64,000 nucleotides of DNA from an uncultured Planctomycetaceae bacterium (GTDB lineage: Bacteria; Planctomycetota; Planctomycetia; Isosphaerales; Isosphaeraceae): NCBI GenBank assembly GCA_963833985.1, contig CAWIAD010000001.1, positions 768,001-832,000 on the forward strand. The letters are read 5' to 3'. This document shows positions 5,753-11,815 of the stretch, one piece after another. The position numbers were made by a program, and so were the translations under genes. Positions within the stretch are counted from its first letter, which is position 1; each line of letters starts with the position of its first letter. Below the pieces are notes generated by a model, which was not told the origin of the DNA, did no database searches, and saw only the letters and a list, made by a program, of their open reading frames with translations.

Positions 5753-6509
5753 GGAAAACTCCGCGAAAGGTCTTACGATCCTCGTCTCGCGATCCCTTGA
5801 TAATGGATTCTTTGCGTCATGAATCCACACAGCCCGCCGTGCTTCAAGGTCGTCGTTCCCTATCGTCAGGCCGGAGTTCGCGTGCTAAGCAGGTTCGCAA
5901 TGGTTCTTTGACAGGCATTCAGTGGGTTGATGCGATCCTGGATGACCGGGAGGCCGCTCTTTGTGGGACACGACTCCCGTGCGCCGTGGAAAGGTGTTGG
6001 TCTTCAGTGGGTGTAACTCCCACCCGGCAACTGGGTCGCTCCAGCCGGTAGCTATCGGAGCGGCGGTGGAGGAGACGAAACCGTCGGAGCCTTCGAGACA
6101 GATGTGTCGCTTGGCGATGCAGCGAACCGACAGGCCGTAACGCGAGTGAACGTTGAGCAGGCCTCGAAAAGTCCAATGTGGTCGCCGACCTTGCTGGAAT
6201 ATGGGGAAGGCCGCCGTCGCTGGGGATGAAAGGGAAACGGTTGGAATAGGCCGCCCCACGAGCGATCAGAACCCAGCGGGCCACCGGGGTATTGACGACG
6301 GCATGTCGGCACACGGAGATCAACACAACACGGGAAACCCCAAGCGGTGAGGGCGCGTGACCCTCAACCGGACGCCCGCGAGGGACCGGCCGGGCTGCCT
6401 GGGGTGGCGGAGAGGCCCGTAGTACCGTCGACGCCGGGTAACTCCGGTCGAGGGAAGGGGCCTTGGTTCAAGGTCAACGCAACAAGCGGCAGACAGCCGG
6501 GAGATTGGC

Positions 6510-7208
6510 GTGAGTCTATCACCTCCACTGAAGGTCGGGAAGTTGCAGACGGCGTTGCACACCAAAGCGAAGAACGCGCCCAACTATCGGTTCTACGTCC
6601 TGTACGACAAGATTTATCGACGTGACGTTCTGGGATTCGCCTACGAACGCTGCCGTGCCAACGGCGGCGCGCCGGGGATCGACGGCCAGAGTTTCGCCGA
6701 CATCGAGGCGTCCGGGAAGGAACGATGGCTGGACGAACTGGCGGAACAACTTCGTAAGGAGACGTATCAACCCCAGGCGGTGCGGCGCGTGTACATCCCC
6801 AAAGGGGACGGCAAGCAAAGGCCGCTGGGCATTCCTTGCATCAAGGATCGTGTGGTGCAGATGGCTGCGGTGCTGGTCTTGGAGCCGATCTTCGAGGCCG
6901 ACCTGGAGCCGGAACAACACGCCTACCGCCCGGAGCGCAGCGCCCTGGACGCCGTCCGCGAAGTCGAACGGCTGCTCAAGACGGGGCACACCGAGGTGGT
7001 GGACGCGGACTTATCTGGATATTTCGATAGCATACCCCATTCCGAGTTAATGAAATCGGCGTCACGGCGCATCAGCGACGGTCGCGTCCTGCGGCTGATC
7101 AAGATGTGGCTGGAAACACCGGTGGAAGAAACCGACGGGAAGGGGCAGCGCCATCGAACGACCCGGAATAAAGACCAGGGGATGGGTACACCGCAAGGTG
7201 CACCGATC
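6510..7208 (+). pseudogene. ltrA: group II intron reverse transcriptase/maturase, N-terminal part
   Basis: GAPGIDG, YIPKGDGKQRPLGIP, DADLSGYFDSIPH, GTPQGAPI; breaks at GATC 7205-7208. Confidence 0.92.
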
Positions 7209-9223
7209 ACGCCCCCAACAATGTTGCAAAATCGTCCCTGATTCCTGACTCTGTCATTTCCAGATCGCGGCTTCGACCGAAGTACGGGCACGGATGGCAG
7301 CCCCGACTCGATCCCGATCCAAGGCAGGCTGGCGGCCGCGCTCTCGGAGAGGAGGAGTCGACATGATCACGTCCCCACGGAGGCCCACGTTCAGTCCTCC
7401 TGTCACCCGCCACTTCGAGTTCACTCGGCTTCAGGAGCAATTGATCGCGCGTGCATATCAGGTCTTGATCCCGGTCGTTTCGCAGCGCCTGGATCGGCCG
7501 CGACCCAGCCGCAACCACGCGACTGTGGTCCACACTATCCAGTCCAAGGTCGGGGGGGTTTGACAAACCATGATCACGGACAATCTCCGCGTGGCGCTCT
7601 ACGCCCGGGTTTCGGGGGAGCAGCAGGAGAAGGAGGACACGATCGCCAGCCAGCTCGAGGCGGTCACTCAGCGGATCGCCACTGATGGCTTGGAATGCGA
7701 GCCCGAACTGCACTTCGTGGACGACGGCGTCAGCGGTTACATCCTGGCCCGACCGGCACTCGAGCGACTTCGGGACCAAGCCGCCGCTGGAGCCATCGAC
7801 CGCCTCTATATGCTCGATCCGGATCGACTTTCACGCAAGTATGCCTATCAGGTCTTGATCCTTGAGGAACTTATCCGGTGCGGTGTCGAGGTCGTCTTCT
7901 TGCGCAACCCCGTCGGCCGCAGTCCGGAAGCCGACCTGCTGCTTCAGGTCCAGGGAATGATCGCGGAATACGAGCGCGCCAAGATCATGGAGCGTTGCCG
8001 CAGGGGCAAGCAACACGCCGCCCGCCGCGGTTCGGTCAACGTCCTCAGCGGCGCGCCGTACGGCTACCGTTACATCGGCAAGCACGAGGGAGGTGGCGAG
8101 GCGCGTTATCAGGTCCTCGCTGAAGAGTCCCGGGTCGTGCGGAAGATCTTCGAATGGGTGGGTCAGGAACGGTGCTCGATCGGCGAGGTGTGCCGACGCC
8201 TCCGGCGCGACAGTATCCCGACGCGGACCGGGAAATCGGCCTGGGATCGCGCGACGGTCTGGTTGATCCTCAAGAACCCTGCCTACAAGGGGACCGCGGC
8301 CTTCGGCAAGACGCGCTCAGGTGAGTTCAAACCTCAACGCCTCCGCCCGCAGCGAGGCCGCCCCGAACACTCCCGGCGACCGGTCTCACGGGTTGATACA
8401 TCCTCGGAAGATCAAATCTTCATTGAAGTCCCCGGGCTGGTGAGCGAAGACCTCTTCCTGGCTGTCCAGGCCCAGCTTGAAGAGAACCGGCAACGCCGTC
8501 GCGACCGGCCCGGCGGTGGCCGATATCTGCTCCAGGGCCTGGTCGTCTGCAAGCGCTGCGGCTACGGCTGCTACGGCAAGCCGACGAGCCGAGCCGCGTT
8601 CGAGGGCAAGGGTAGGGTCCGCTACGCGTACTACCGTTGCACGGGCTCTGACGCCTATCGTTTCGGCGGGCAGCGCCTCTGCTGGAACAAGCAGATCCGC
8701 ACCGATATCCTTGACGCTGCCGTCTGGGAGGACTTACGAGGTCTCCTGTCCGAGCCGGAGCGGGTCCGGGAGGAGTACGAGCGGCGGCTGCAGGGTGCCC
8801 AGGGCGGGCCGAATCAGGAGGTGGAGCATCTCGGCAAATTGATAAATAATGTGAAAAAGATGATTTCTCGATTAATCGATGCTTACGGCGACGGGTTGCT
8901 CGACAAATCGGAGTTCGAGCCCCGGATCTCGGCGGCAAGGACGCGCCTCTCGAGATTGGCGGAGGAGCATCGACAACGAATCGGCGAGGCCGCCCAAGAG
9001 GCGGAATTGCGACTGGTGATCGGTCAGTTGGAGGAGTTCGCACGTCGCGTCTCGCAAGGGTTGCAAGAGCCGGACTGGGCCACGCGACGGGAGGTGGTTC
9101 GGGCCTTGGTGAAGAAGGTCGAGATCGACGAGCAGGAGGTCCGCATCGTGTATCGGGTCAGTCCGTCCCCTTTTGAGAAAGGCCCCCAACAACGTAGTTC
9201 GCAACATTGTTGGGGGCGTGATC
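7209..9223 (+). mobile_element. minimal integrative element encoding a large serine recombinase, inserted in the intron RT gene
   Basis: Perfect 19-bp terminal inverted arms (acgcccccaacaatgttgc 7209-7227; gcaacattgttgggggcgt 9201-9219), GATC at both junctions (7205-7208, 9220-9223); removal restores the RT frame. Confidence 0.9.
7363..7563 (+). CDS. 66-aa protein upstream of the recombinase (candidate accessory/directionality factor)
   Basis: AGGAGGAG RBS before ATG 7363; stops 6 nt before the LSR start; function is inference. Confidence 0.6.
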   Translation: MITSPRRPTFSPPVTRHFEFTRLQEQLIARAYQVLIPVVSQRLDRPRPSRNHATVVHTIQSKVGGV

Positions 9224-9444
9224 TCACCATTGTTGTCCAACATCTACATGCGACGATTTGTGAAGGGATGGAAGACTGGTGGACACGAGCGGCGTCTGGT
9301 CGCGCGAATCGTCAACTATGCGGACGACTTCGTCATCTGCTGTCGCGGCACGGCCGAAGAGGCCATGACGGTGATGCGGAAGATGATGTCCAGGCTGAAG
9401 TTAACGGTGAACGAGACCAAGACGCGGCTGTGCCACCTGCCTGA
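7570..9444 (+). CDS. large serine recombinase (resolvase + recombinase + Zn-ribbon + coiled coil); C-terminal tail read from intron DNA
   Basis: ALYARVS catalytic Ser, DDGVSG, RPALERL, DRLSR, CKRCG...YYRC...C; no stop before the right junction. Confidence 0.93.
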   Translation: MITDNLRVALYARVSGEQQEKEDTIASQLEAVTQRIATDGLECEPELHFVDDGVSGYILARPALERLRDQAAAGAIDRLYMLDPDRLSRKYAYQVLILEELIRCGVEVVFLRNPVGRSPEADLLLQVQGMIAEYERAKIMERCRRGKQHAARRGSVNVLSGAPYGYRYIGKHEGGGEARYQVLAEESRVVRKIFEWVGQERCSIGEVCRRLRRDSIPTRTGKSAWDRATVWLILKNPAYKGTAAFGKTRSGEFKPQRLRPQRGRPEHSRRPVSRVDTSSEDQIFIEVPGLVSEDLFLAVQAQLEENRQRRRDRPGGGRYLLQGLVVCKRCGYGCYGKPTSRAAFEGKGRVRYAYYRCTGSDAYRFGGQRLCWNKQIRTDILDAAVWEDLRGLLSEPERVREEYERRLQGAQGGPNQEVEHLGKLINNVKKMISRLIDAYGDGLLDKSEFEPRISAARTRLSRLAEEHRQRIGEAAQEAELRLVIGQLEEFARRVSQGLQEPDWATRREVVRALVKKVEIDEQEVRIVYRVSPSPFEKGPQQRSSQHCWGRDLTIVVQHLHATICEGMEDWWTRAASGRANRQLCGRLRHLLSRHGRRGHDGDAEDDVQAEVNGERDQDAAVPPA

Positions 9445-9823
9445 GGAGACGTTCGACTTTCTGGGTTATACCCTCGGCCGGAACTACGACCGACGAACGG
9501 GCCGATCCTACATAGGGTCACGCCCATCGCGGAAGAAGATCATTCGGCTGTGCAGCGAGATCAGTGCGATGACGACGCGCCAGACCACTGGACAGGACGT
9601 CGAGATGCAGATTGGTCGGATCAATCGCAAGTTCCGCGGTTGGTCCAACTATTTTCGCATCGGAACGGTGAGCCCAGCCTATCGCCAAGTCAACCACCAC
9701 GTCCGCTACCGGGTACGTCAGTGGTTGTGTGCGAAGTTCAAGGTGCCGGGTCAGGGGCTCAGACGCTACCCTGACAGATACCTGCACCAGGAGTTGCATC
9801 TTTACCAGCTGCAACGAACCTAG
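9224..9823 (+). pseudogene. ltrA: group II intron reverse transcriptase/maturase, C-terminal part (no HNH endonuclease domain)
   Basis: SPLLSNIYM, YADD (VNYADDFVI), FDFLGY, RGWSNYF maturase motif. Confidence 0.92.
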
Positions 9824-10368
9824 CCGCGATGGTTTCGTGAGCGAACGTGTGAACTCAACCGATGAGACAAGCCTTGTCCGAAAGCTGGATGCGGGAACAC
9901 CGCCCGTCCAGTTTGATGAGCGGGGTGTGGAAACGAGGCCCAGCCGAGCCATCGACTCGAGCCCACCGCGCCACACCTCGACTCTACATCTTGTCACTTC
10001 TTCGATCTGATGGAACCTGGAATGGCACGATGAGAATCGTACCCCACGAGAATGGAATGGCACGATTGGAATCGTACCCCACGAGGAGAGCGGCCAGGCT
10101 TGGCTCTCAGCCCCGGGCAAGCGAACGGCCATCCTGTCCAAAGACTTCTGTGGATTTGCTGAGGCTTGCAAATCGCACGCCCGTCGCTGCGCAGCCCGAA
10201 GCGAGAAGCCTTGCAGGAGATTGGCGGGTTGCGCGGCGTTGACCCACCCTACGAATTTAGATCATATCTCAAGCAAATCAATGCATTATCCAGGACCTTT
10301 CGCAACCGTGCGGAAGCGGTCAAAATCATCGATGAAGATTTGTAGGGTGGGTCAGCGCAGCGCAACCC

Positions 10369-11815
10369 CATAGCGTCCAACTTAAGGAATTTGGCCTAGA
10401 AAAAAAGAAAGGAAGTCCTTAATCCAGTTCGCGTTGTATCGAGCAAGCGCGTCCTGGAAGAAGGAGCTTCCGTTGGGGATCATAAACAAGGTGGCCGTGT
10501 TGTTGCAATCGAGCTTGGGTTCGAAACTCGACGAGATCGGTCGTGCGACGGGCGTGATCCGGCGGCAACGAAAATTCTCGGGCGCGTCGCTGCTCAAGAC
10601 CATGGTTCTGACTGTGATGAAGACGCCTCGCCCCCATACCAACGACTTCGTCGCGACGGCGGCACTGCTGGGTGTGAACGTGACTGCCGAGGCGATCGAA
10701 AAGCGGTTCTCGGAGAAGCTCGTCGCGCACTTGCGCGCGGGTTTGGAACACGTGTTGGAGTCCGTCGTGGAGGCGTCGGCGGCCGGCGTGGCGCTGCTGG
10801 ACAAGTTCACCGCCGTCGTGATCGCCGACAGCACCACGGTGACCTTGCCCGACGAATTCGAGGCGGAATTTCCCGGCTGCGGTGGCAAAACGGGCAGTGG
10901 TAAGGCAGCGGTGAAAATTCAGGTGGCGTGGGAACTGCGCCGCGGTCAGTTGGAGAAGTTGGAGGTCCATCCCGGTCGTCACAGCGACGCCACGAGCGTG
11001 GACGTGGACGCACCAGTGGCCTCCGGATCGCTGACGCTCCGCGACCTGGGATACTTTTGCCTGGAGCGGTTCCGATCCATCGGCGCAAGGAGCTTATTGG
11101 ATTTCGCGTTGGCAACACGGCACGGCCGTTTTCGACGCGGAGGGGCGGCGATGGGAGATGCTGGCGTTTCTCCGACGGCAACCCGCCGGCATGCCGGTCG
11201 ACGTGTCGATCGCGGTGGGCGCGGCGGAGCGTCTGGGATGTCGGTTGATCGCCTTGCGAGTGCCTCCGGAGGTGGCGAACCGACGTCGGCAAGCGGCCTA
11301 CGAAAAGGCTCAAAAACACGGCCGCGTGCCCACGCAAGAACATCTGGACTTGTGCGACTGGACGATTTTCCTGACCAACTGCCTGGCCGCACTTCTGACG
11401 TGGAAAGAGGTCGTGGTCCTGTATCGGACGCGCTGGCAAATCGAACTGCTGTTCAAACTTTGGAAATCTCACAACCACCTCGCCGAGTCGCGTGCACACT
11501 GGACCAGCATGGAACGCCTGGCGTTGTTCTGGGCGAAACTGATCGGCGTGGTGCTTCAGCATTGGCTGCTCCTGACCGCGAACGCGGCCGATCCCCGCCG
11601 CAGCCACTGGAAAGCGGCCCGCGTCATCCGGAACTGGATGGAATCCCTGACCCGAGCGTTGGATAACATCGACGAGCTCATACGCACCTTGAGAGACATG
11701 GCCACGACGATCGCTAGCGTCGCTCAGAAGAAACGTCGGAAGAAACGGCCCAGCCTATTCCAACTCCTTTTGGATCCAGAACTTCTGGAATGGAATCCTT
11801 AAGTTGGACGCTATG
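10369..11815 (+). mobile_element. IS4 family insertion sequence (IS231-like ends), 1,447 bp
   Basis: Terminal inverted repeats catagcgtccaacttaagga / tccttaagttggacgctatg; DDE transposase inside. Confidence 0.9.
10473..11802 (+). CDS. IS4 family transposase with a frameshift near 11085
   Basis: IADST, RDLGYF, YRTRWQIELLFKLWK (YREK signature); TTG start after AAGGAG; stop lies inside the right IR. Confidence 0.88.

Follow-up and report, generated by a model that had tools for sequence, protein, structure and literature searches.

Among known mobile elements, a large serine recombinase (LSR) moves the clostridial transposons Tn4451 and Tn4453 (TnpX) and Tn5397 (TndX), which carry resistance or conjugation cargo, span 6–21 kb, use a GA core and choose their targets loosely; we know of no long perfect terminal arms and of no helper gene in elements of this type. 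The directionality factors of phage integrases have been reported to bind beside the coiled coil of the integrase. Standard insertion sequence (IS) families include, to our knowledge, only the small-recombinase IS607 type. In the IS607 family, which is described in PMC6188088, the recombinase TnpA is small and carries its DNA-binding domain at the N-terminus, the elements lack terminal inverted repeats, and targets are chosen with little specificity; group IIC-attC introns home to integron attC sites (PMC3001079). The element treated here lies in a 64,000-nt stretch of DNA from an uncultured Planctomycetaceae bacterium (assembly GCA_963833985.1, contig CAWIAD010000001.1, positions 768,001 to 832,000; the whole stretch is called the window below), where it splits the reverse transcriptase (RT) gene of a group II intron. 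With a probability of roughly 85%, we read it as an autonomous, IS-like LSR element of 2,015 bp that is a parasite of another mobile element and homes to a motif of the RT gene. The direct support for this reading comes from its anatomy, copy number and exact site, from empty sites, from a target shared by its family, from insertion in both orientations, from a conserved helper gene and from the predicted binding of the helper to the recombinase.

The element consists of the following features (window positions):
7208..9222, + strand: inserted element, 2,015 bp counting one AT, from occupied minus empty site
7208..7230, + strand: left terminal arm (P'), CACGCCCCCAACAATGTTGCAAA, by inverted repeat
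9198..9220, + strand: right terminal arm (P), TTCGCAACATTGTTGGGGGCGTG, by inverted repeat and half-site comparison
7206..7207, no strand: left crossover dinucleotide AT, found left of all 11 copies and once in empty sites
9221..9222, no strand: right crossover dinucleotide AT, by junction comparison of genomic copies
9182..9195, + strand: subterminal repeat of the arm, in opposite orientation to the right arm, giving a 14-nt stem with an 8-nt loop
7363..7563, + strand: small gene, 66 aa, candidate recombination directionality factor; an ATG at 7294 gives 89 aa
7570..9222, + strand: large serine recombinase gene, 550 codons inside the element (Resolvase, Recombinase, Zn_ribbon_recom)

The two ends form a 26-nt inverted repeat (7205–7230 and 9198–9223) that is complementary at 25 of 26 positions (96%), with 1,967 nt between its halves. 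Its outermost 23 nt, GATC included, match perfectly and contain the perfect 19-bp arms with GATC at both junctions that a preliminary description of this DNA had claimed; the 23-nt terminal arms proper are complementary at 22 of 23 positions. By our own arithmetic, chance would yield a perfect 23-nt inverted pair in a 4.4-kb region with an expectation of ~1e–7. The occupied site measures 2,019 bp against 4 bp (GATC) for the empty one, giving an insertion of 2,015 bp, which is the length named in the preliminary description. Its account of the content, a 66-aa open reading frame (ORF) and an LSR, was likewise correct, and the small ORF is a real, conserved gene; these two genes are the only coding content, and cargo genes are absent. 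Neither the ORF list nor the domain search gave a DDE, HUH or other classical transposase domain in the element. With 2,015 bp, 11 full copies, 23-nt arms and two mobility genes it nevertheless has the traits of a classical insertion sequence; a prophage or island remnant was considered and is ruled out by the 2-kb length, the two genes and the 11 identical copies. A 7-mer of the left end, GATCACG (at 7205), recurs exactly at both gene starts (7365 and 7572; ATGATCACG) and has no other occurrence in the element on this strand; the small-gene start MIT/MIA is retained in the closest clade only, and the recurrence is either chance or a regulatory site.

The host of the element is a group II intron with these features:
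5979..9987, + strand: host group II intron, 4,009 bp with the element and 1,994 bp without (Rfam and copy comparison)
6510..7207, + strand: 5' part of the RT gene (GTG start), ending in GTPQGAP plus the AT of an Ile codon (RVT_1)
9221..9823, + strand: 3' part of the RT gene, I-SPLLSNIY..., YADD and the maturase domain (RVT_1 and GIIM)

Rfam recognizes domains I–IV of the intron at 6005–6145 (group-II-D1D4-4, 98.9 bits, gathering score 49) and domains V and VI at 9880–9962 (Intron_gpII, 36.1 bits, slightly below the gathering score of 40, E = 1.8e–4), and the intron ends (GTGCG... and ...CTCTAC) were set where the flanks of 10–12 genomic copies diverge. The left part of the split gene matches positions 1–127 of the 205 in the RVT_1 profile (E = 7.3e–18) and the right part positions 121–205 (E = 1.6e–13), followed by GIIM (E = 1.9e–14); the two halves are continuous in empty copies of the intron.

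Comparison over the whole assembly (10.16 Mb, two contigs) found 11 full-length copies of the element at identities of at least 99.95%, and one more cut by a contig end. Nine full copies interrupt copies of this intron at one and the same nucleotide, seven of them running with the intron and two against it, and a tenth intron copy counts as occupied because the start of contig 2 reads through the intron into the left end of the element before the contig stops. All 12 maturase-domain matches in the genome represent this one intron; 10 of its 12 copies are occupied at the same codon (between GTPQGAP-I and SPLLSN), and the other two have an unbroken frame of 461 codons. These two natural empty copies (C2:1392505-1392590 and C2:2153470-2153555) read ...GGTGCACCGATCTCACC..., which equals the predicted empty site that the preliminary description had proposed to look for. 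They encode an intact 432-aa RT from the GTG start, reading GTPQGAPISPLLSNIY, and so match the product expected there from deletion of the element, a 432-aa RT with PQGAPI joined to SPLLSNIY. Since only two intron copies keep an open RT frame and the rest are occupied, 10 of 12 are knocked out; the claim that the maturase is switched off is borne out in the sense of disruption, and the element may act as a brake on the intron population. One occupied copy (C2:2147541-2148825) carries an extra insertion of ~1.28 kb in its 3' part, around which the intron pieces overlap by 12 bases of the BLAST query.

Two copies of the element lie outside introns, with junctions C-AT-C / G-AT-G and T-AT-C / G-TT-G. 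Because they share only AT with the intron sites, the crossover dinucleotide would be the central AT, and by comparison of these junctions the G and C of GATC belong to the target in this intron and not to the crossover core. An AT at both junctions and a single AT in the empty site fit a serine-recombinase crossover, a pattern that a 2-bp duplication would also leave in the sequence. One of the non-intron sites shares CCGCAAG with the intron target at –15 to –9, and no genes were identified at either of them, where the adjoining open frames resemble high-GC noise. The copy with junctions AT and TT (C2:5865418-5867437) has a 1-bp insertion near element position 1746 that shifts the LSR frame, and is probably a trapped, dead element. 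A relic at C2:4627300-4628493 joins, at intron position ~350, a 94–95% variant of the intron to a 398-nt piece that is 81% identical to the element, which suggests that a diverged relative invaded at an earlier time and that a deletion followed.

By every domain test the larger gene encodes a large serine recombinase, distant from the characterized ones. Residues 8–155 match Resolvase (PF00239, E = 2.6e–29), and matches to Recombinase (PF07508, E = 1.9e–19) and Zn_ribbon_recom (PF13408, E = 4.2e–10) accompany it; R13, the catalytic S15, Q19 and the zinc-ribbon cysteines C327, C330, C357 and C371 are invariant in 38 LSRs of the family. Some 100 residues separate the zinc ribbon (to ~390) from the C-terminal strands. 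The closest solved structures are phiC31 integrase, SPbeta SprA/YokA and TP901-1 integrase, at weak but specific likeness (E ~1e–7); the NCBIfam matches to CcrB and XisF fall far under their cut-offs, and the IS607 model (NF033518) gives 26.3 bits against a cut-off of 110, with the match limited to the catalytic domain. The LSR frame has no stop inside the element and runs on to 9444 in the flanking RT DNA. It is open through the right end in 42 of the 49 relatives for which both ends were found, and uninterrupted at 48 loci; the lack of an internal stop accounts for the varying LSR lengths among relatives.

The subterminal copy of the arm sequence occurs in 21 of 50 elements, all of them in the closest (Planctomycetota) clade, where the right end (9182–9220) folds back on it. 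In three distant relatives (L046, L050 and L053) a GC-rich hairpin followed by a T run stands just before the arm. These folds and hairpins at the right end, taken with an LSR frame that lacks a stop, hint that read-out or the 3' end of the mRNA may be controlled.

The small protein gave no match to any Pfam or NCBIfam family, and the ESM Atlas returned for it only unnamed clusters of 66–68 aa with scores below 0.9. Across 26 aligned relatives, which range from Planctomycetota to Pseudomonadota, both the place of its gene and the sequence are nonetheless conserved. The motif is V.R.FE..RL....L..AY..L.P, with Y32 invariant in 27 sequences, and the stop of the gene abuts or overlaps the LSR start. 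A structural model of the complex of the LSR with the small protein scored 0.68 (runs 0.74, 0.65 and 0.68), against 0.00 for the best of three controls; 116 of 157 solved complexes attain such a mark, as do 2 of 215 mismatched pairs, counts that hold only roughly here because our own alignments were used. At least 84% of contacts agree between runs, and the predicted local distance difference test score (pLDDT) of the partner is at least 64. The predicted interface joins LSR residues 376–406 and 490–536 to residues 9–38 of the small protein, its conserved core, and flanks the long LSR segment between the zinc ribbon and the C-terminus. This is where phage factors are reported to bind, which makes the small protein a candidate directionality factor, and PDB entries for an SprA-SprB fusion are among the structure matches to the LSR; on the strength of its conservation and of the model, it is probably such a factor. 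A 20-nt direct repeat (19/20; 7452–7471 and 7842–7861) encodes AYQVLI in both proteins, in the conserved core of the small one and in the catalytic domain of the LSR, where Y91, A92 and Q94 are invariant.

The 120 best LSR relatives are at least 83% identical and 538–923 aa long, one of them being fused to an RT domain. Scanning one genome per species gave at least 548 encoding stretches, from which 79 loci were kept; these fall in Planctomycetota, Chloroflexota, Pseudomonadota (Pseudomonas, Paraburkholderia, Ralstonia, Azospirillum and Mycoavidus), Spirochaetota, Acidobacteriota and others. Many are orphan contigs of ~2.0 kb, as multicopy repeats give, and the elements of relatives measure 1.95–2.03 kb. 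Relatives whose LSR is as little as 45% identical still have the terminal arms, in which the outer ACAATGTTGC hardly varies. A flank could be read at 67 of the 79 loci, the other 12 lacking one. The preliminary description had named homologous elements at unrelated targets as an outcome that would speak against it, a test that it passed: the RT motif stands exactly at the junction in 50 of the 67 readable loci. The host RTs are mostly only 25–52% identical to the RT of this intron, in keeping with the earlier claim of a cargo-free element that targets a conserved motif of a retroelement. A tblastn search with the RT of this genome placed an RT in the flanks of 44 loci; by our own count, the alignments at 32 of these break off no more than 8 nt from the element, at RT residues 259–263 (the junction follows residue 262).

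Both flanks are readable at 47 loci, of which 13 are canonical in the plus and 14 in the minus orientation, 5 have like halves on the two sides, 4 show half-sites and 11 are not in an RT; the orientation of canonical insertion is unbiased (13 versus 14). Within one metagenome-assembled genome, two 100% identical elements (L033 and L043) have opposite orientations, and the RTs that host them share 75% and ~36% identity with the RT of this window. On the TOL plasmid pWW53, a member with a frameshift stands inverted at the same RT codon, under the sole annotation 'recombinase family protein'. At the five loci with like halves, the same RT half stands on both sides in inverted arrangement, the 5' half at L032, L036, L037 and L077 and the 3' half at L039, with 270 identical nt at L032. 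Such flanks would result if copies lying in opposite orientations in two introns recombined, and the family may drive chromosomal inversions. We found no published description of such an LSR insertion family in the full-text literature, a search whose scope left most subscription journals and ISfinder outside, making earlier naming possible; the LSR-driven insertion sequence that parasitizes group II introns is widespread and apparently undescribed.

The choice of this codon can be read from the sites themselves. The consensus of 28 canonical sites (the window and 27 loci, with 20 other two-flank loci omitted as non-canonical) is GG.AC.CC.CAaGGcGG.gtg, core, ctc.CC..TgcTgGC.AAcaTc, and that of the element arm is TTTGCaACATTGTtGGgGGCGTg; seven of the inner nine consensus positions are shared between element arm and target arm, and all four half-sites carry GGnG(T/A)G beside the core. 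The Gly-Gly-Val codons on one strand and the Ser-Pro codons on the other are near reverse complements, which makes this stretch of the RT, polymerase motif B, a ready quasi-palindrome for a dimeric recombinase. The likeness of the half-sites also explains two features of the split gene, the seven-position overlap of the Pfam RT matches and the reading of the right arm as N-I-V-G-G-V-I in the RT frame (ORF 9173-9823), a GGVI to which the preliminary description had drawn attention; a duplicated piece of the RT was considered as its source and is ruled out. Junction dinucleotides are concordant in 20 of the 28 canonical sites (AT in 14, CT in 5, GT in 1), and cores vary between targets because the core is the first two bases of an Ile, Leu or Val codon.

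Some members of the family have other targets. In Azospirillum the element (L082) splits a gene for a Mutator/IS256-type transposase at position 360 of 379 in the Pfam profile (E = 2.1e–29), and two further loci (L086 and L087) show the same flank peptide. On a Rhizobium plasmid (L106) it splits a DDE_Tnp_1 transposase at profile positions 162–165, and in a member of the Myxococcales (L074) a DDE_Tnp_1 flank begins at position 163; both matches are weak (E from 6.5e–5 to 0.04). In Cysteiniphilum (L092) the target lies in a group II intron again, with domains I–IV upstream and domain V cut exactly at the junction, where the left flank ends (model positions 1–28 of 77, E = 0.0068). The plasmid locus L106 (Rhizobium leguminosarum) also shows the reverse nesting, in that an annotated IS256-family transposase gene lies inside the LSR-family member, which itself splits an IS4/IS5-type transposase gene. 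In a quick tree of 38 LSRs (the window and 37 of the 48 intact loci, 11 near-duplicates having been removed by hand; quick search only), RT-targeting members stand on both sides of the midpoint root, and other targets are found in derived clades. Members of these clades have different inner arm bases, similar to the target that each has taken up; a constant outer arm (ACAATGTTGC) with inner bases that change along with the target points to a modular recognition that can be re-aimed. A broader proposal, which we hold tentatively and at somewhat less than even odds, is that the LSR family forms a guild of retargetable hyperparasites, each clade homing to the most conserved stretch of another mobile element, in which the composite of intron and element rides on retrohoming and the stop-less frame senses the state of the element. 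A stop-less frame would give the LSR different tails in the integrated and circular states, and could in this way let the element sense its own state.

Several observations weigh against an autonomous element that homes to the RT motif. At 17 of the 67 readable loci the insertion is not at this motif. Junction dinucleotides are discordant in 8 of the 28 canonical sites and in one copy of this genome (AT/TT); such cases would reflect integration into a core with one mismatch and subsequent replication, an explanation against which it counts that studied LSRs are usually intolerant of core mismatches. A gene without a stop codon inside its own element is unusual and unexplained, and the binding of the small protein is a model confidence, not a measurement. 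An end-to-end circle junction was not seen in the assembled contigs of four soil runs from one study, contigs being unable to show absence. These runs (all contigs; no run found held more than 0.47 of the sampled words) do contain fragments of elements at a similarity of at least 90%, whose loose ends at 7207, 7208, 9220 and 9228 are RT-motif variants by our own translation; five 'skip' joints in the soil contigs are short-sided and of undefined content, with no bearing on excision. The remaining adverse points concern this genome, where eight occupied introns carry the element one way and two the other, and where all seven complete same-orientation copies share a private intron single-nucleotide polymorphism (SNP; C at 9238, 16 nt from the core) that is absent from the two inverted and the two empty copies.

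Shared orientation and a private SNP are the pattern that retrohoming of a composite intron would give, and they are a ground for treating the element as a passenger: a single ancient insertion in domain IV, multiplied by composite retrohoming with RT/maturase supplied in trans from the two intact copies, the LSR playing little or no part in the present copy number. Two intact RT genes could indeed act in trans, and the ribozyme domains around the insertion are intact by Rfam. Orientation is, however, a weak marker, because the symmetric arms and palindromic core would let the recombinase flip the element in place, and a passenger should not be found in two places outside any intron with only AT shared at the junctions, nor inverted in two intron copies. 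The element is also less polymorphic than its host, with 2 versus 7–8 segregating sites among the seven composites (binomial P = 0.06–0.09) and, over all nine occupied copies, 2 in ~2,011 bp versus 9 in the 1,989 bp of the intron halves (one-sided binomial P ~0.03), so that by sequence it looks younger than its host introns. Between SNP 851 of the element and SNPs 9634/9898 of the intron every one of the four possible haplotypes is present, showing that element and intron reassort, and elsewhere in the family unrelated RTs hold identical elements at one and the same codon. We consider it improbable that passage with the intron accounts for the copies, while the element may also ride on retrohoming composites in this genome; hitchhiking would then be a secondary route, for which the hints are mixed.

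Rather less probable again is a domesticated switch, in which the host or the intron uses an excisable or invertible element to turn the RT/maturase on and off, after the model of the LSR-excised skin and fdxN elements. Removal can restore the RT precisely in frame, the symmetric arms and palindromic core would permit inversion in place, and the helper gene is conserved, all of which would fit a switch; eleven near-identical copies, some of them outside introns, and a spread over several phyla into unrelated introns and transposase genes are selfish behaviour, and no host gene is interrupted. An ordinary inverted-repeat IS or non-autonomous derivative moved by a DDE transposase from elsewhere, with the AT as a 2-bp duplication and the recombinase as cargo or resolvase, is the least credible of all, since terminal inverted repeats and a 2-bp direct repeat formally fit, but the element holds no DDE gene, its only large gene is conserved with the arms family-wide and forms the right arm with its 3' end, a ~40-bp target at one codon in 50 of 67 loci fits a site-specific recombinase, and the arms resemble the target half-sites as if one protein bound both.

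Returning to the autonomous LSR element, we infer its cycle, namely the chemistry, the circle, the excision and the role of the helper, from known LSR behaviour. Dimers of the LSR would bind both ends, with the small protein seated where a directionality factor would be, at the foot of the coiled coil; the helper-bound LSR would bring the two junctions together and cleave each of them at the central AT, and strand exchange by subunit rotation would release a circle and restore the RT gene. The joined ends of the circle would form attP, a near-perfect palindrome of right arm, AT and left arm. Without the helper, the LSR would recombine attP with attB, the DNA for G-T-P-Q-G-G-(V/x)-(I/L)-S-P-L-L-A-N of a group II intron RT. 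As the AT and the arms are symmetric, insertion in either orientation and inversion in place would both be possible. A target of this kind is multicopy, horizontally mobile and harmless to the host when disrupted.

The surroundings of the intron hold some further features. A short palindromic motif that recurs (5' exon ...GTGGGACACGATTCC, 3' exon ATCGTGTCAC...) surrounds the intron and is itself embedded in arrays of a ~35-bp repeat; two tandem 33-nt copies lie at 10018–10085 of the window. What the flanks of the intron copies have in common is just 70–250 bp of short repeat array, with no larger duplicated unit in which an occupied and an empty intron could be compared for gain or loss in place. 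Downstream, a DDE_Tnp_1 transposase gene (10434–11802) is split across two overlapping frames (ORFs of 410 and 214 aa), probably by a frameshift, and just upstream of it is a pair of 38-nt inverted repeats, 84% complementary (10226–10368).

If the reading is right, the family is a new class of compact, widespread IS-like elements that move by means of a large serine recombinase. It is also a case of conflict between mobile elements, in which one lives by destroying the RT gene of another and has silenced most intron copies of this genome. For annotation, it explains many records of a 'recombinase family protein' beside a broken RT, orphan contigs of ~2 kb and at least one contig break in this assembly. 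As tools, the members offer natural sets of LSR, helper and att sites, with defined sites of 40–50 bp and several specificities, that are raw material for genome integration; modular recognition, if true, could be re-aimed by evolution or by an engineer.

Set beside the systems with which we began, the element resembles Tn4451/Tn4453 and Tn5397 in having an LSR as sole 'transposase' and, in the cycle proposed above, would like them excise as a circle and reinsert by a 2-bp crossover with no target duplication. It is set apart from them by its 2-kb, cargo-free build, its 23-nt symmetric arms, its AT core and its one highly specific target inside another mobile element. It is like the phage serine integrases and their directionality factors (phiC31 Int/gp3, SPbeta SprA/SprB, Bxb1 and TP901-1) in domain architecture, in the predicted attP x attB reaction and in a small partner predicted to lie near the coiled coil; unlike them, it is no phage or island, its integrase is only weakly similar in sequence, and its helper is co-transcribed directly upstream of the integrase. 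An attP that is a near-perfect palindrome with a palindromic core would also have no polarity, unlike those of phage systems. With the IS607 family it shares the condition of an insertion sequence moved by a serine recombinase, although its LSR scores far below the cut-off of the IS607 model. Like group IIC-attC introns, it is a selfish element that targets a conserved sequence of another mobile element, using an LSR rather than a ribozyme and RT, and a different target. By analogy, then, its overall working is like that of the clostridial LSR transposons and of the phage integrases with their directionality factors, and it differs from both in being a 2-kb, cargo-free, multicopy unit with symmetric arms and a palindromic core, with its helper gene upstream and its target in a mobile element.

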